Below, one piece after another: positions 331 through 57,185 of a stretch of DNA of 64,000 bases. Under the pieces are notes generated by a model that worked only from the letters and a program-made list of their open reading frames with translations, was not told the DNA's origin and did no database searches. The position numbers and the translations under genes were made by a program. The stretch is from positions 20,708,001-20,772,000 of the forward strand of contig OX597837.1 of the NCBI GenBank assembly GCA_951406725.2, read 5' to 3'. This DNA comes from Octopus vulgaris (taxonomy: Eukaryota). Positions within the stretch are counted from its first letter, which is position 1. Every line of letters starts with the position of its first letter.

Positions 331-1672
331 TGTTTCTTTATTAGCCACACAGGGCTGCACACAGATAGAACAAATTACAAGGTAGAGCTTTTCTTTTGAA
401 GGTTTAAAAAAAAAAAAAAAAAAAAAAAGGAAGGGGAAGTTTCGATCAAAAGGGATCGTAAAAGGAGAGAAAGAGGACAAAAAAAAGGGGGTTAAAAAAA
501 AAGGGGGAGAGGAAAAAAAAATTGATCAATAGGGATCGTTATCACAGAAATGTCAATATGAAGTGTAAAGGGGAGGACAGGTGAGGTTTACCCGTGGAAA
601 GAAAAGCCTACGGAAAAGACCACGGTAACCTCGGTCAATGAATCACATTTTATATTTTTTTTTTTTTTTTTTTTGCAAATAAGCAACTCTCTGTTTTCGA
701 TTTCTGGGTTCATAGGACTATGCTCAAGGTGGCTTCGTCATTCATACGTGCCATTCTTGCTACATTCACCCATCTTTTTTAAAACATTCGCTAGACAAAA
801 CTTGCCTCTCTACTCTCACTTTCCTTTTCAAGTGGTACTTGAAGAAGTTGATGAGAGATTGACCAGAGAGGAAAGTGTTTGTCTCCAATCCTTTCAGACG
901 CGTCCACCAGATACATTCTTTCGCCATAGCCACAAGGATGATGAAAATAGCTCTTCCTTCCCGTTTGAAGGAAGGAGGCGTGACAATATTGACGATAGAC
1001 TCAGCTGATAAACCGACTCGTCCCACACGTGACAGCAGTTGTTCGACATAAGCCCACAGGTCGAAAATTGTTGGACACTGAACGAGTGCGTACAGAACGG
1101 TTTCGTCGCTCTGACCGCATCTTGGGCAGGTCGGCCCCGTGTTTCTCGAGCCGTGTCTGTAGAGCTTATCCCGAACGGGTAGCGCTTCTCGGTAGCACTG
1201 CCAGGCCAGGGATCTCTGGAAGTTGTCCATGGGCCCTGGCCCGAAAGTCGTCCTGAACAGGCGGGTCAGGTACTCCTCGTCGACGTCCAGGTTCGCCCCG
1301 AGCTCGTCGTCGTACCTCCCCTCCACTAAACCCCTATAGAATGCTTTGGTTGTGTTGAAGTCACTCAAGGTCGACCCAGGACGGCAGAGTTGCTTGAGAG
1401 CAACGCGACACTCGCGGTGCCATTCGCCCTTCCTCGGCCTCTTTTTGATAGATATCCACGACTGCAGTTCGGTCATGGAGACGAGCTGATAGATAGGAAA
1501 GCGTGCCTCACAAACGGCGACCACACCTGTTCACCGTCGTCTACATAGAGCCAGAGATGCCGCAGTCTCAGCGCGTGTCTGCGCATCATCAACCACGGCA
1601 TGCCCAGCCCTCCTTTTAACGGGTGTTGACAGCAAATGGATCGCCTGACCATCGGGATAGATAGCATCCTTT
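331..1672 (-). mobile_element. Tx1/L1-clade non-LTR retrotransposon, 5'-truncated (ORF2 C-terminus with zf-RVT, plus 3' UTR; copy A)
   Basis: ORFs 1473-1667 and 766-1524 give GGLGMP...WQCYREALPVRDKL...CPRCGQSDETVLY(H)ALVQC...IWWTR, the L1/Tx1 ORF2 C-terminal zinc-binding region; frameshifted; AATAAA near the 3' end followed by (TATC)n. Confidence 0.88.
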
Positions 1673-15679: not shown

Positions 15680-18600
15680 TTAATAAGTGGCGTTATGAAA
15701 CCGTCGAGTCGTCAGCGACTAAACCGGAAAACCCACTAAGCTTGCTTGGTAAGGGGCTGGATTTTCGACACCCTGCGGGATTAAAAACAAAACCCGGCAA
15801 AGGGCAGAGGAACTCAGAAGAGTTAATGGCCATTCCAAAAACTGGTAGACGGAACTCGTGAGCCTTGGTTGGCAGTCTCTTTTGGAGAAGGAACACTCTG
15901 ACTTAAAACTGGAGCAGATAGGACTCCTTAGTCACAGTGGTGACAGCCTGTCAGTGTCCAACGGCTCCATGCTTGAGATGAAGATGAATTAACCGCGAAT
16001 CAGGACTTAATTCTGGAGCAATATTTGGCTGACGATACGGGACCAACTGATGCTCACCTGCCTCCCAGTGAGAATCATGATCATGGACCCCAACACAAAG
16101 AAATGCGGAGGAAAAAGGCCTAACTTATGGGTAGTAAGAGCTCTGCAGTCTTGGTTGACAATCTTACTAGAGATGGTGTCTCGATAAAAATACCGGTTGG
16201 TGGCTAACCTTAAAACACAAACCTCATTGTTGAATGAAAATGTCTAACACAAATGTATCAAATAACGGTGTTAATGAGGCTGGAACCAAAGGTGAAAACC
16301 TTTCGCCAGCAAGTGTCTCGTGGTAGAGCAGTGCAGTCCCGGTCGTCATCCAGGGACTGGTTGTACATAAAGCCAGAACCAAAGAAGAAGGTGAGATAAG
16401 GAGGCAAACCGAACGGTAATTGAATGTGGGATCAGGAGGGATCCCAGTAGAAGGAGATTCCGACAACGAATGAAAGTAAAATAGAATGGAATGGGACACT
16501 CCGAAATAAGTGCGCAACGGTTAGTTGACCAGGCAAGAGCAATAAGAGCAAAAGGGTGGTTAACAGACATGGAAATTGAAGAGATAAAGATGAAAGTAGA
16601 AAATCGAAATAATACTTCACCAACCGATTACGTGCCCAGTGAGAACAAAGAAATGAATGGTGGCAGGGAAGATGTAGAACAAAGTGTAAATGTAAATGTA
16701 TTCTCAGTAAATGAAGCAGAAGTAATAATATGATGACAAGATAACCAACAAGATTTAGTGAGGATGCTGAGCCGACATATTATAGAAGACCAGGATCAAG
16801 CAAACCCCATCACACACACACACACAATCAGAGGTATATTGATCAATGCATTGATTCGGTCCTTGGACTATTCCAGGGTAGAAATATAACCGAAACTAAT
16901 AAGATTATTTGGGATGCAGTAACGGTTGCTGCAGACAGAGTTGGATACAAAAGAAGAGAAAAAAGAGAACGTAAAAAACCATTCTGGTGTAGACGAATTT
17001 GTGAGAGACAAAGTTAAGAAGATATTTAGGACAAGTTGATATGCTAAGAAGAGGGCAATTGCAGGAGGAAAGCATAAGAATAATGCTGGAAAGAACACAT
17101 AGAATAAGAGATAAAAGGGTATGATGTGATATTGGAAGAATTGAAACAGGGTAGTAGCAATCAAAGCAAAACTGGAAAGACGTGAAAATAGAACAAAATA
17201 ATTCAGGCAAAACAGATTGTTTGAAGCAATTCAGAAGGAAGGGTTTCAGGAACTAGATGGGCAATTACACGTAGCAGAGGGAAGCAGGGCATTCTGGAGA
17301 TGGATCTGGGACCAATCCGTAGAGCATAATGACGAAGCGGAGTGGCTGCATGATATCCAAGATAGGTTAAGAAAAATAGAAGTCCGAGAAGACATACAAA
17401 TAACTACAGAAATGATTAAAAAAAAAAGCAATTAAAAAATTCCCAAATTGGAAGAACCCAGGACTGTATGGAGTCCAAGGTTATTGGATGAAGAAGCTGA
17501 GAGGGCTCCATGAAAAGGTAGCGCAACAGCGAGCTGAGTGCTTGCAGAAAGACGAAATAACCAGCTGGATGATAAAGGGAAAGACATTGCTGTGTGCCAA
17601 GGGTCCTGAAAAGGGAAATGTTGCATCCAACTTTAGACCAATAACGTGCCTTCCGCTAACGTGGAAACTAATGTCAGGTGCATTGGACGGTGAACTGTAT
17701 AGATACCTGGGAAACAGTGGACTGCTACTTACTGAACAGAAAGCGTGCCGAAAGAGGAGCCGGGGAACGAAGGATCAGTTCTTAAGTGGTAATCTAATTA
17801 TCAGGAACTGCAAGAGAAGACACAAACTTGAGCATGACATGGGTTGACTATCGTAAAGCATACGCTATGATACCATACTCCTGAATAATAAAAAAACAAT
17901 GGAAATATATGGAGTAGCAGAAAATATGAGAAGCCTTATATGGAATAGCATGAAATGCTGAAGAACGGAATTGACAGCAGGGAATCAAGTATTGGAGAGG
18001 TGAAAATCAAGAGAGGTATCTTCAAGTTGGGGTATTATCTGGGAAGAGATAAGGGAAAACTGAACCACTTGCTATTCATGGACGACCTGAAGCTGTTCAG
18101 AAAAACTGAGGCAGAACTGGACAGTCTGTGCGAATGATATTAAGATGGAGCTTGGACTCTCAAAATGTTCTGCGATGGTGATGAGACGAGGAAAACTTTT
18201 CAGAACAGATGGCATATGGTTGCTAAGTGGTGAAATGATGAATGCAATTCAACCTCAATCCAGCTATAAATACCAGGGAATACTTGAGGCAGATGGAATA
18301 AGATACAATGACATGAAGGAAAAGACAAAACGAGAATATTTGCGGCGAGTGAGAAAAATATTGGGTTCAAATCTAAATACCAGAAACCTAATTTCCAAAA
18401 TAAACTCGTGCGCAGTCACGGTAGTTCGGTATGGTGCTGGAATCCTAAAGTGAACAGAGGAGGAACTAAAGGAGATGGACAGGAAGTCAATAAAGCTTCT
18501 AACGATGCATAGTAGCCAACATCCACGCATGGACATTGATCGTCTACACATGAAGAGAGCAAATGGAGGAAGCGGACTGATAAGTGTAGAAGACTGCGTG

Positions 18601-19345
18601 CGTTTCGAACTCGAAAGCTTACTGAGATACCTAACCCAAAGTAAGGAACCCCTTCTAGTTATAGTTAGGAACGAGGGAGTATTGAAAGCAGAGGAAACAG
18701 GAAAAACAAAGGAAGAATTACAAACAGGAGATGAAGAAGAATTACGCAAGAAGGGACTATACAATCAATGCAATGTAGCCACAGCAGAAGTTGCTGGAAA
18801 AAATAGGTGGGATTGGCTGATAAAAGGAACCCTAAAAAAAGAGACCGAGGGCACTATACTGGCAGCGCAGGACCAAGCTTTGGCCACGAACTGGAGGGTC
18901 AACCTTAGGAATGAGCAAGTGTCTCAGCTGTGCCGCATCTGCAATAGAATGGATGAAATCATTGGCCATATCATGAACGAATTCCCTAGACTTACCGAAA
19001 ACCACTACAAGTTGTGGCAACACGATCAGGTAGCGAAAGTGCTACATTAGAAACTATGCCAAAAGTGGAGGCTAGAAAGAGGCAGGACGTGGTATGAGTA
19101 CAAACCGGAGAGAGTGGCGGAGTCGGAGACTAGCAAAATCCTCTGGGATCTTCCAATCTGCTCTCCTGGGGACAGCTAGGATTTTGAGATTGGTACATTA
19201 AATGTTGACTGTCTCCCACGACAATTAACAATCAAATATCAAGGCTTATAACGTGTAGTTGACCTCTGACAGGAGGCTGATGTCCGCTCTCCCAGAATTT
19301 ACCAGAACAGGCAAGACCGAACGTTTTGAGAAATAAAACAATAAT
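15680..19345 (+). mobile_element. Dong/R4-clade LINE, near full-length but decayed
   Basis: RT motifs NFRPITCLP, GTKDQ, LNHLLFMDDLKLF and GLSKC; later ETEGTILAAQDQAL, CRIC...HIMNE and HDQVAKVLH; many stops and frameshifts; endonuclease partly deleted. Confidence 0.92.
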
Positions 19346-49560: not shown

Positions 49561-52500
49561 GGCTAATATGTCTTTTGTATTCAACATTTTTTCCTTTTAC
49601 CAGTAATATCATTCGTCCAATTTGTTCATTAATTACTCCGTCCTGCCAGCTTTCTTTACCATATTTATAGGTTTTTTTTAAGAAAAAAAACTTTGTCACC
49701 TAAATTAAAGAATTTTGAAGTATTTTTGTTATTCGCCATTTTTAATATTTTCACTCGATATCAGATTAACACAAACGGATCTGACCTTTCTAGCAAACAT
49801 CAATTCTGCGGGTGACAATTCCCGACGGTACTTTTTTCAGATTAGGTGTTACTCGGTACACTCTTAGAAATTGTTGAATTGCAAAATCGTCCATCACTCC
49901 ATTGTTCTCAATCAACGCCCTCTTGAAAGTGTCAACAAACGCACCGCTTGTCCATTTTACTTAGGATGATACGGCGGAGTGGTGACATGTTCGATGACGA
50001 ACATTTTACAAAGTTTCCTGAACTCGGCTGACGTAAATTGAGTTCAATTCAATTCAATTTTTGTTGGCTCAAAAAGCAAAAGCAAGGCCATGTAGGGGGG
50101 CAGGGAGTTATGTACAGAGAGGGTGGTCATACAAAGAGTTCAGGCCATTTCTGGTCAAGAGAGACTTTGAACCGAGCAGTCGTCGGCATCTTCACTATCT
50201 CGTCCGGCAGCTTATTCCACGGATCCGCAACCCGGACGGAGAAAGTCCCTCTCCTTCGATTGAGATGAAATCGTCGTAGATAGAGCTTTTCGGAGTGACC
50301 CCGCAGCCCACGCTCTGGCGCAGGAGTGAACAACAGCTCTTTCGAGAGGTTACACTTTCCGCTTATGATGTTGTGAGCGAGAATGAGATCACCACGGCGT
50401 CGTCGTTTTTCGAGAGAATAAAGGTCGAGCGTCTTCAGCCTTTCTTCATAAGACAAATGCTTGAGACCAAGAACCATGCAGGTAACCAGCTTCTGGACTC
50501 TTTCGAGATGTTGTTTGTCTTTGAGGAGATAAGGACAAGAGGCTTGAATCCCGTACTCCATTATGGGTCTCACCAGCGTGACATAGAGCGGTAGGAATAT
50601 GCTGTGGTGGAGGCATCGACAGAGATCATCTATATCACTGGAGAAGCGACCAGTTTAACATCGTCGGCAAATAGAAGGGTGTGTTGCGTAAGGTCGCTGG
50701 GCAAGTCATTGATGAAGACTAAAAACAATAACGGCCCAAGCACTGAACCTTGAGGTACGCCACTGCTCGCACTGGAGACGTCGGAGAGCGAACCATTAAT
50801 TTGGACTTGGAAGGAGCGATCTGAGAGGAAGGCACCAACCCATCGTATAATATCCGGATGGAAACGATATGCTTGAAGCTTGACAAGTAATAGGCGGTGG
50901 TTAACCAAGTCAAAAGCTTTGGCAAAGTCCAATAAAACGATGTCAACAGCATCACCATCATCCAGGATACGCATCACCAATTCTTCCATTACCAGTAAGT
51001 TGGTCAAGCATGATCTCTTCGGCACGAAGCCGTGTTGGGAATCAGAGATAGAGGCTGTATTTTGGAGGTGGAGCAACATATTTTTCTTGAGGATGGTTTC
51101 GAACATCTTGCTGATAATTGAAATAAGGGAAACCGGTCGGTAGTTAAGCGGGTCATCGCGGCTCCCTTTCTTGAAAATCGGGCAGATTATCGCTCTTCTC
51201 CAGTCCGCAGGTACAACACCCGTCGCCAATGACATATTGAATAGAAGTGTTAAAGGTTCGCAGATGACCGGAGCCAACGCTTTGATAACCTGTAGGTGTA
51301 TGCCGTCAGGGCCGTGACCCTTGTTGACTTCGAGGCCTTGAACAGTACCGAACAAATTTGTTAAGTTTTTTTCACAAAATGTAATGTTACTTATCAATTC
51401 GCTCTTAAAATGTTTTTTCCTGAAACACCACGGGTAATTTTCGAGGCTTCATTTAATTTAGGTCTCCCAATTTTTTTCCATGTATTTGTGTTAATTATTG
51501 AGATGTTGCTGCCTGTATCCAATTGTAACGTTACGTTTGTGCTATTAATTTTTACATACACAAATTTTCTTTGAGGCTCGATCGTATTTTTACTCACCGG
51601 TAATCCGTTTACCTTTTTTTTCTGTTTAACCGTTCTTTCGGTTCTGTCCTTCAGTGCGACTTTTTATGGCCTATTTTACAACACTTGAACCATTTTATAT
51701 ATATAAACGGAAATTTATTTTTAAAATGTAGACCACTACACCCATAACAGGATTCAGTCTTGATATTTTTTCTCTTGTTTCTTATTTGTTACCGGTCGAC
51801 ATGTCTGTATGTGAGAGCAATCTTTCTCTTCAATTTTATTTGCGTTATGTTGTAGGTTAATAATACTTTTCATTCTTCTACTACTGCCTGTACAGTTAAA
51901 TTTTGGTCCCGTTCTAATTTTGTTAATATCCGGGAACATATCTGTGCATCTTTGCTAATATCCGCATCTTTATTTGCAGTAAACCCTGGAACAAAAATTA
52001 AAGACTCGAACATCTCCAGGATCAACTCATTCAATCTTAATTCCTCACACTCTCTGTTAACCACTCCGGCGTAGGTGATGAAATCTTCATCAACTTTTTT
52101 GACCAAATTTAAACATTACCAGCGAGTATTGAACAGGGAAGTTCTTTCACTGAAATTTTCGATAAAAATATTGTTTCATCGAAACAAATCTTACCTGGCT
52201 TCTCCGGCAGAATATATTTACTATATCTTTCATGTTCGGCAGGTGATAACTTTCTTACAAGTAGTCGTACTTTTTTCTCGTCGGACCAACTTTTACACTC
52301 TTCTTTGAAAATATGCAGAGAAGATAATCCCTTCTTCTGGATTATAGCTGAATTCTTCAAGTGAGTTTACTATGCTGTCTGGTGAGTACGAAGCTAAAGT
52401 ATTATCAGACTCCTTCAACGTTAATTCCAGCAACTGTTCGTTTTATTGTTGTTGTTGCAGTTGCTGCTGCTGCTGTAGTTGCTGTTGCAACTGCACAGTG

Positions 52501-54475: not shown

Positions 54476-56162
54476 CTTGAAGGGTATAGACGAGCAAATC
54501 GACTGCAATATTTTTTATATTTGAAGTCTGGTACTAATTTTGTTGATATCTTTTTGCCGCACCGTTAGGTTACGGAGACGAACTTGGTTTTGCAAATAAT
54601 TGTTGTAGCATAACTGATTAAGAGGTCATGAAATTTTGTATTTGCAAGAGTAATTTATCGCTGCTGGTTTGACTGGATTTCTTAATATTACGTTTTACAT
54701 GTCTGATGCTCAAGCAAACATCGGTTGTCAAGCGATGGTAGACACACACAAACACACACACACATACAAACAAACACACATACATACGACGGCCTTCTTT
54801 CAGTTTCTGTCTACAAAATCCACTCCAAAAGGTTTGATCGGCCCAGAGCTAAAGTAGAAGACATTTGCTCGGGACTGAACCTAGAACCATATGGCTGGGA
54901 AGTAAACTTCTTAGCACACAGGCACACCTGTGCCTGTAGAGAATTTGTTTTCACCAAGTATCTCCAGAACAAAGAAAAAAGGAAATTTACTGACCTTACG
55001 AAAGCCAATATTAAGTCTTTGAACATCAGCATTGTACATTGAGAATATTTCACAATGAGTAGAAGCGAATGGTGGTCCATTTTGAGGAACAACGATTTGT
55101 AGCTTGAGAAGATTCGAATTTCCAATAAATGGCAAAACATATTGTCCGAAACCTGCAAGAGGTAGAAACTTTCAAAACAGATCTTGTCTCCCGTAATGGT
55201 TAACATACCAGGAAAACAACAAGAGAGGTTTTATACGCATACAGCATCAAAAGCCTTCGCGGGGAAATGCTGTTCTTTACGACCAATGTTGTGCTTAACT
55301 GAAAATCCGTTTTCGATCAATGTAGAAGAGACGAGTGGCCGAGTAACGGCATAAATAAATAAATAAATAGAAATTGACAAAAGACACAGGCGTAGGTGTG
55401 AGGTAAGAAGCTTGCTTCCCAACAACATAGTTCCGGGTTCAGTCCCACTGCATGGCATCTTGGGAATGTGTCTTCTACTAGAGCTTCAGGTCAACCAAAG
55501 CCCTTTTGAGTGGATTGGGTAGAGGGAAATTAAAAGAAGCCTGTCGTATATATATATATATATATATACACACATCTTTGTTTGTGTCTTCCTGTCTGTG
55601 TTTGTCCCCACCAAAATCACCACTTGAGGATCGGTGTTAGTGTCTATATGTTTCCGTAACTTACCGGTTCGGCCTAAGACATCGGCAGAATAGGTATCAG
55701 GCTTAGCAAAATATAAGTACTTGGGTCGATTCATTCGACTAAAAATTCTTCAAGGCGGTGCCCTAGGATGGCCGCAGTCTAATGATTGAAGCAAGTAAAA
55801 GATAAAAGATAAAAGAAAATAAGGGCTCAGTGGAGGTTTTAAGGTTCGTAGTAGAAACGTTATCAAACATGTTATAGGCATATATTCGCAATGAGAAACT
55901 GTTTATGATCACAGCCGAGTTAACTACCATCTATATACCATTTGTGTATGTGTGTATGTGTTATATATATATATATATGTAGAATGGTTGTATACTGTCA
56001 ATCTAACAAGAACGTGACAGTAGGGGGTACACCACCGCTGTATAGCCCTAGGAAGCATCGAACGCCTCCTGATAGCTTTGACACATTTTTTTTTCTTTTT
56101 TTTTTCCCCTGTGTCCTTATATACATATACGAAGGGGAGACAAACACCCCCGACCGCCGGAA

Positions 56163-56220
56163 CTGCATCTAGGGACACCGTGTTTCAGGATCATTGTCCT
56201 TCATCGGCCTAGAGTAGCAG
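56163..56220 (-). ncRNA. Complete type-I hammerhead ribozyme (left-arm copy)
   Basis: Exact reverse complement of 56488-56545. Confidence 0.85.
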
Positions 56221-56487
56221 ACACCGGTCGGCTGGTGATATTTGCCTCGACTTCGTATCTGTATATATGTAAACTCAGTGAAGTTTATTCACTGATTATC
56301 AAAATAAGAAATATTGAATTTCTAAATCTCTCGTAGAGACATGTACGGTGGTGGGGCGATAGAATGGTTGTATACGAGAGATTTAGAAATTTAATATTTC
56401 TTATTTTGATAATCAGTGAATAAACTTCACTGAGTTTACATATATACAGATACGAAGTCGAGGCAAATATCACCAGCCGACCGGTGT

Positions 56488-56545
56488 CTGCTACTCTAGG
56501 CCGATGAAGGACAATGATCCTGAAACACGGTGTCCCTAGATGCAG
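56488..56545 (+). ncRNA. Complete type-I hammerhead ribozyme (right-arm copy)
   Basis: ctgc-tac-tctagg-CCGATGA-agga(caatga)tcct-GAAA-ca(cgg)tg-TC-cctaga-t-gcag: stem I tctagg/cctaga extended by ctgc/gcag, stem II agga/tcct, stem III ACA/TGT; predicted cleavage after C56534. Confidence 0.85.
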
Positions 56546-56756
56546 TTCCGGTGGTCGGGGGTGTTTGTCTCCCCTTCGTATATGTATATAAGGACACAGG
56601 GAAAAAAATGTGTCAAAGCTATCAGGAGGCGTTCGATGCTTCCTAGGGCTATACAGCGGTGGTGTACCCCTACTGTCACGTTCTTGTTAGATTGACAGTA
56701 TACAACCATTCTATCGCCCCACCACCGTACATGTCTCTACGAGAGATTAAGAAATT

Positions 56757-56796
<40 letters not shown>

Positions 56797-56824
56797 TGTG
56801 CTAAACCATTCTATTCGTTATCTA

Positions 56825-56898
<74 letters not shown>

Positions 56899-57074: not shown

Positions 57075-57124
57075 GTGACAGTCTGACGAAGTCTAAAAGA
57101 CTGAAACTTCTAAGCCACTGTAAC
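57075..57124 (+). ncRNA. Type-I hammerhead motif, probably inactivated
   Basis: gtgacagt-CTGACGA-agtc(taaaa)gact-GAAA-cttctaag-CC-actgtaac; GCC where GUC is expected. Confidence 0.65.
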
Positions 57125-57185
57125 CCCTGCTCTTTTAAAAGCTTAACCTGTATACCTACCTACATGTCTGCCTACCTACCTACCT

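Follow-up and report, generated by a model that had tools for sequence, protein, structure and literature searches.

The closest described relatives of the locus reported here are the non-LTR retrozymes of metazoans. As in the octopus element, their unit is non-coding (150–450 nt, and 350–390 nt in mussels), carries a canonical type I hammerhead with a short helix III, adopts a stable fold, and occurs in genomes that also contain Penelope-like elements (PLEs) (PMC7229834). Circular RNAs have been demonstrated for the retrozymes of coral, mussel, and axolotl (PMC7229834), and a 2026 preprint describes retrozymes as non-autonomous derivatives of PLEs (bioRxiv 10.64898/2026.07.22.740005). PLE insertions are characterized by 5′-truncated partial tandems, an inverted truncated copy, a tail of 30–40 bp at one end, and a bias toward microsatellites (PMC8557442); the same paper regards the process that makes the tails and the inverted copies as undefined. 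A circular template has been proposed for PLEs (PMC4209133).

The locus lies in a window of 64,000 nt from Octopus vulgaris (contig OX597837.1, positions 20,708,001 to 20,772,000). It is a single insertion of a dispersed, non-coding hammerhead family of the non-LTR retrozyme kind, as the initial annotation had proposed, with a type I hammerhead, a unit of 365 nt, and no ORF of at least 150 aa. Our reading, held at a probability of about 0.7, is that this retrozyme is likely written into (TA)n by PLE enzymes, likely from a circular RNA, with one template serving both arms of an insertion.

The inverted pair and its family

Unit numbering (1–365) starts at window position 56373. The left arm (55980..56375, minus strand) covers unit positions 326–365 and then 1–341, or 1.04 units, and is a short-end arm whose 3′ end meets (TA)n. 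The right arm (56373..56762, plus strand) covers 1–365 and then 1–25, or 1.07 units, and is a long-end arm that stops 7 nt short of the usual long end at unit 32. The two 5′-truncated ends meet at an inner junction (56373..56375) with a 3-nt overlap, tac; overlaps of 0–4 nt are found in 46 of 80 back-to-back pairs. The tail, which runs from the short end (342) to the long end (32), is present only at the outer end of the long arm (56715..56762, plus strand), and the (TA)n target flanks the element on the left (55961..55978) and on the right (56759..56895).

The arms had been annotated as reverse-complementary copies of one unit that begin at different places in it, overlap by tac, encode no protein, hold one complete hammerhead each, and are bounded by (TA)n. 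All of this was recovered: no ORF of at least 150 aa overlaps the element, the two hammerheads are identical, the predicted cut falls after C56534 as claimed, and (TA)n is present on both sides. The short terminal repeats stressed at that stage are also there, one of 16 nt at a period of 380 in the 396-nt left arm and one of 25 nt at a period of 365 in the 390-nt right arm (copies 92% alike), but they are incidental, reflecting two truncations just past one unit in a family whose copies are mostly shorter than a unit. Finally, the 15-nt difference between the arms was placed entirely in homopolymer runs. More precisely, 14 nt lie in a G/A tract, which includes one interrupting G, and 1 nt is a C; besides run lengths, substitutions separate the arms as well, at 3 of the 365 positions compared.

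The type I hammerhead motif (56488..56545, plus strand) has the core CCGAUGA/GAAA/GUC, a U4C variant, with a predicted cut after 56534, and lies at the tip of a long predicted stem (56441..56590, plus strand; z = −6.3); the identical motif of the left arm (56163..56220, minus strand) has its predicted cut between 56174 and 56173. An Rfam scan at the gathering score gave 0 matches to hammerhead, and the call is based on the motif match together with covariation. Among 20 sequences taken across subfamilies, with identity down to about 67%, both sides have changed in 11 of 17 pairs and 88% of cells are paired, a result equalled by 0 of 500 shuffles. Related sequences can beat such shuffles; when the alignment was slid, a control that retains relatedness, pairing dropped to 17–47%. 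Variability is 0.009 in the core versus 0.050 in the remainder of the unit.

U4C is fixed in the young subfamily; lower activity in vitro has been reported for this variant, with viroid infection still possible (PMC3088659). Helix III is absent from the predicted monomer fold, and because it is weak, self-cutting would probably proceed as a dimer ribozyme. The missing helix in the fold model fits dimer cleavage, but it would fit weak cleavage equally well; among frog retrozyme dimers, 8 of 9 remained uncleaved in vitro (bioRxiv 10.64898/2026.07.22.740005). Folded as a circle, the unit scores far better than shuffled versions (z = −7.2, 60 shuffles), and the priming sites at 342 and 32 are both predicted to be unpaired; the 3′ priming region shows weak covariation, in 1 of 18 pairs. 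A hairpin after TTGATAA (56405..56437, plus strand) resembles, and may be, a decayed PLE minimal hammerhead with GAGT replacing GAAA; it was rejected as a second minimal hammerhead, as it departs from the consensus. Beyond the element, an isolated minimal hammerhead-like match between (TA)n tracts (57075–57125, plus strand) has the core, a 4-bp helix II, a 5-bp helix I, and an imperfect cut site, and may be a relic or due to chance.

The window locus carries one hammerhead per strand, and the full cut-to-cut monomer is absent. It is thus a product and not a source, and no full monomer would come from it; it was also rejected as an "active" retrozyme locus, a class defined by two consecutive hammerheads.

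At the level of the genome, a 21-mer close to the 3′ end of the unit has 1,924 exact matches against 0 for the reversed control, so the family is not a matter of chance. A 33-nt hammerhead pattern has 442 matches, and the two counts, obtained with different patterns, describe a gradient of 5′ truncation. A first look returned 2,113 candidates for the unit in the 2.8-Gb assembly, of which 40 were scored. Our full set contains 206 distinct arms at 114 loci, many picked by best score and hence biased toward long copies. The strict sample consists of the first 30 hits of the 21-mer pattern on contig C1 (25 loci, 41 arms) and, by requiring the 21-mer, favours arms that retain the 3′ part.

The initial annotation had predicted that start and end phases would be dispersed across the genome. 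In the strict sample this is true of the inner 5′ ends, scattered from unit 4 to 316, but not of the outer 3′ ends, 36 of 41 of which fall at one of two fixed phases separated by 55 nt: about unit 342 (18 short-end arms, at 336–343) and about unit 32 (18 long-end arms, at 25–43), with 5 arms ending elsewhere. Arms in this sample have a median length of 168 nt (longest 361), back-to-back pairs occupy 14 of the 25 loci, and 20 of 36 ends have (TA)4 or more no farther than 20 nt away (119 of 180 in the full set). The full set holds 80 back-to-back pairs: 61 combine a long with a short end, 1 has two long ends, 0 have two short ends, and 18 have an unclassable end. Where both ends could be classed, 61 of 62 pairs are therefore long+short. 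Convergent pairs were absent among the 114 loci.

This regularity bears on whether a fold-back DNA element, a satellite, or an assembly artefact could mimic a retro-copy. The inverted repeat does adjoin a long (TA)n, and public reads leave the window locus without confirmation: no contig built from them spans its junction with 31 nt to either side, and the left flank is partly uncovered. However, the strict long+short rule, inner junctions that differ among the 80 pairs, the truncation gradient, and a covarying ribozyme fold make such an origin scarcely credible.

Multimers, also anticipated earlier, do occur: tandem copies with hammerheads in consecutive units exist (L015, L020, L028, L165) and reach 3.4 units in L020. 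No LTR-type arrangement was seen among the unit copies.

Besides the young subfamily, older subfamilies of the window unit (L121–L126, L203–L228) are 67–88% alike, and the most divergent retain the canonical U4 core, the younger ones having U4C. Further hammerhead retrozyme families have units of 351 nt (L276:2868-5062), about 330 nt (L183/L141/L208), and 459 nt (L278:1829-3462), and another lies in the L264 flank; their copies, tandem as well as inverted, lie in (TA)n, a U3-A8 core is present in some, and some are distantly alignable to the window unit. Among the papers listed for octopus with hammerhead or retrozyme, none describes such a family; the families may, however, already be recorded in Repbase/Dfam or in the supplements to PMC7229834 and to the 2026 preprint.

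Probable insertion by PLE machinery and the nature of the template

The 365-nt family displays the PLE signature: 5′ truncation, partial tandems, an inverted copy, a one-sided tail, and microsatellite bias. Coding PLEs are plentiful in the same genome and include a Neptune-type family with intact 781-aa RT + GIY-YIG ORFs. Five candidate coding-PLE pairs and two full-length loci served as an in-genome control. A Neptune-type pair in (TA)n (L275) has one long and one short end with a tail of about 38 nt, and a second PLE family (L176, L272, and, by eye, L273) forms long+short pairs in (TA)n with a tail of about 150 nt; the control pairs L271 and L274 have one classed end only. Since coding PLEs share the long+short geometry, their machinery likely inserted the 365-nt element, and we consider mobilization by PLEs very probable.

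The retrozyme tail measures 55 nt, so neither control family is shown to be the partner. No pseudo-LTR homologous to the unit was found in 91 PLE-holding loci, a small part of the thousands of candidates; BLAST searches with the unit, first in 60 and later in 91 of these loci, returned neighbouring retrozyme copies only. Two patterns taken from contig loose ends had no matches, and a third was rejected as a partner PLE, having matched a sister subfamily. Matches of a PLE query at residues 1–25 were set aside as an artefact, as the query began inside a retrozyme.

These searches also address the proposal that there is no independent unit and that what is seen are pseudo-LTR ends, solo or truncated, belonging to a longer PLE with coding capacity. 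Fixed ends and a tail are indeed PLE features, and at one locus (L154/L232) a long arm is directly fused to a truncated Neptune-type ORF. Nevertheless, the unit continues head to tail into itself, a search for a shared ORF 5′ of the arms found none, homology to pseudo-LTRs is absent in the 91 PLE loci, and the fusion is equally explained by nested insertion. The proposal is thus very improbable and largely refuted already. The initial annotation had named as one refutation of its reading termini of a longer coding PLE without multimers, and the family, with multimers of up to 3.4 units, is a different case. The element was likewise rejected as an autonomous PLE, since it has no RT + GIY-YIG ORF.

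Several PLE loci deserve mention in their own right. At the fusion locus (L232:4728-6899), the long arm is joined directly to a 5′-truncated Neptune-type ORF and the whole lies between (TA)n tracts, an arrangement that is ambiguous between a template switch and a nested insertion. The Neptune-type PLE at L173:906-5672 looks intact: its 781-aa RT/GIY-YIG ORF is preceded by one of 359 aa, its 456-nt pseudo-LTRs are 99% alike, and it has a minimal hammerhead-like motif of the U3-A8 kind. A very abundant PLE family (L061–L090, L175, L176; 16,655 first-look candidates) carries a hammerhead in its 3′ UTR and has a tail of about 150 nt, far above the published 30–40 bp. A weak, AT-rich match (71% over 59 nt, E 0.004) between L174:5425-5480, at a Neptune-type 3′ end, and the 459-nt retrozyme unit of L278 is a possible lead to the partner of that family.

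As for the template, successive passes within an arm differ at 186 of 8,714 positions (0.021; 46 arms), and the two arms of one locus at 230 of 10,895 positions (0.021; 70 pairs). In the same columns, the median difference from arms of other loci is 0.036 and 0.046, and the own divergence is below the other-locus median for 37 of 46 arms with repeated passes and 67 of 70 arm pairs. In a sample that included 17 chosen loci, 9 of them chosen for paired hits, rare letters are shared by both passes in 18 of 170 cases and by both arms in 15 of 170, as against 28 of 6,533 between loci. The equal values within and between arms agree with a single RNA having been copied and the copies having aged since; local conversion between neighbouring arms could be an added cause of their likeness.

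A linear cut monomer is expected to halt cDNAs at unit 163. In the strict sample, 10 of the 11 arms reaching this cut site pass it, in line with the earlier idea of a cDNA that runs through it. Stops at the cut site (2 of 19, in the same partly hand-picked sample) are not above those in neighbouring bins, and there is no excess of gaps at the cut site. Exact hammerhead-to-hammerhead pairs in the genome number only 28 at 26 places, with at most three hammerheads consecutive; a longer master array could be hidden by mismatches or assembly collapse. One template, a cut site that is crossed, arms of 3.4 units, and no array above three hammerheads together make a circular RNA template likely, as far as footprints in DNA can indicate. 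Most copies are shorter than one unit, so a circle is not needed for them. No data set recorded as RNA was found to hold the family. Contigs of presumed-RNA runs from three studies contain it, with greater depth 3′ of the cut site; ends, strand, and level are unreadable in them.

PLE-driven insertion could also have used a linear template, either a multimer transcript that was left uncut or a monomer that was cut, with the RT jumping from one of its ends to the other, in which case the hammerhead would be weak or dispensable. The fixed U4C core, the weak helix III, presumed-RNA contigs that span the cut site, and the many arms shorter than one unit all agree with this. Against it, arms of 2–3.4 units occur in several sequence variants with near-identical passes and no longer source array was found, scars or stops at the cut site are absent, and the hammerhead core is conserved while its helices covary across subfamilies. 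We regard a linear template as unlikely, if still to be reckoned with, and favour the circle.

The circular reading can be set out as follows. Rare source loci with two tandem hammerheads would be transcribed and the RNA would cut itself after GUC, probably as a dimer ribozyme; by analogy with the coral, mussel, and axolotl retrozymes, the monomer would then be ligated into a circle. A PLE enzyme would nick both strands of (TA)n, with one nicked end priming at unit 342 and the other at unit 32, in each case at a UAU whose loop is predicted to be single-stranded. As their footprints show, the two cDNAs extend over random lengths, cross the cut site unstopped, and join at their 5′-truncated ends via a few shared bases. 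The outcome is the long+short inverted pair that is seen, with a 55-nt tail on one side.

LINE insertions upstream of the hammerhead

The unit is itself a target. Unit positions 97–111 (56469..56483, plus strand; mirror copy at 56225-56239, minus strand) form a LINE target site that is empty in the window and duplicated around insertions in other copies. Several unit copies are split there by a 1.65-kb ORF1-only LINE derivative with a CCHC knuckle, a 5′ T run, and a 3′ AATAAA, which is inserted and stacked at 97–111 of many retrozyme subfamilies (L199:4735-8184, L179:368-8076, L178, L200, L202–L231). Its 3′ end has 42 exact matches; among the 30 examined, 23 lie at the target site and 20 have a hammerhead core 28–36 nt downstream (1% of random windows), 3 of these 20 loci having served to build the pattern. 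In the remaining 10, the target is followed by a stacked copy (3) or the end lies elsewhere (7).

A young 5.4-kb LINE (L233–L270) shares this preference. Pfam searches on ORF pieces of broken copies gave an ORF1 with a CCHC knuckle and an ORF2 with APE, RT, and zinc domains; from its motifs we take it to be of L1/Tx1 type, and homologue names for its RT gave no clade name. The search was seeded by an L126 fragment, and the best 30 of 605 candidates, one of them the seed, were examined. Within these best 30 of 605, 28 end just upstream of a retrozyme hammerhead (22 with hammerhead and downstream family motif, 4 with the motif and a damaged core, 2 with retrozyme flanks recognized by eye) and 2 are stacked there. 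All seven full-length copies are surrounded by target duplications of 9–16 bp. Similarity is 97% among the LINE ends and 53–99% among their flanks, which indicates independent insertions into different retrozyme families. A LINE counts as target-specific when more than 20% of its copies lie at one target type with duplication; here the figure is 30 of the best 30 of 605. The converse possibility, that the retrozyme is a 3′ transduction of the LINE, was rejected, as the duplications flank the LINE and the flanks vary while the LINE is constant. Other LINE fragments (RVT_1, zf-RVT) lie in the window at 50127-51448 (minus), 766-1530 (minus), and 18454-19050 (plus).

Literature searches found no Tx1 LINE targeting a hammerhead or retrozyme, and this class of target was not found in print; it raises the matter of how one position is recognized across diverged targets. 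Co-transcription of the LINE with flanking ribozymes that trim it is a guess. A three-tier stack, in which PLE enzymes use two fixed loops of one small RNA circle for twin-priming and the site just upstream of its hammerhead has become the specialty of a LINE lineage, is put forward tentatively, at somewhat less than even odds. If true, twin-priming on a circle would account for the tail and the inverted copy of PLEs generally, and the flanking ribozymes would excise or trim LINE transcripts, in the way that the HDV ribozyme processes those of R2.

Comparison with known systems

A number of differences from the described systems can be noted. The metazoan non-LTR retrozymes are organized as tandem repeats, with circles shown and mobilization by PLEs only proposed (PMC7229834), whereas the 365-nt family is mostly dispersed and 5′-truncated, often in inverted pairs with two fixed ends, and its circle is putative. 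The 2026 preprint shares the conclusion that retrozymes depend on PLEs, with evidence from co-occurrence and pseudo-LTR homology, mainly in vertebrates; under its "active" rule of two consecutive hammerheads, the window locus is not active (bioRxiv 10.64898/2026.07.22.740005). For the 365-nt family, the evidence for PLEs is instead insertion geometry, pseudo-LTR homology being absent in the 91 PLE loci. Evidence for the mobilization of animal retrozymes has hitherto consisted of co-occurrence and homology, and the octopus family provides direct footprints, in that its pairs obey a strict long+short rule, each insertion has a single template, and the cDNAs read through the cut site.

EN+ PLEs and the non-autonomous Chlamys/MRC1 share partial tandems, an inverted 5′-truncated copy, a one-end tail, and microsatellite bias with the 365-nt family, which differs in having no ORF, a tail of 55 nt rather than 30–40, and a canonical rather than minimal hammerhead (PMC8557442). 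The circular-template model for PLEs, with self-cleavage, ligation, and more-than-unit reverse transcription, is a proposal (Cervera and de la Pena 2014, PMC4209133), and it is tested here on footprints only. A protein-free substrate of 365 nt is small enough for circular and linear RNA to be compared in vitro.

Among site-specific Tx1 LINEs, Tx1 inserts in Tx1D, Keno in U2, and Tx1-Mar in Mariner-N4 (Kojima 2015, PMC4494074). The octopus LINEs resemble them in using a fixed site in another repeat, in duplicating the target, and in forming stacked copies (PMC4494074); their target, 25–33 nt upstream of the hammerhead core, is kept across targets that are only 53–99% alike. Non-LTR retrozymes are already described, and to them the 365-nt family adds footprints from which the mechanism is unusually easy to read, along with a LINE target that looks new.
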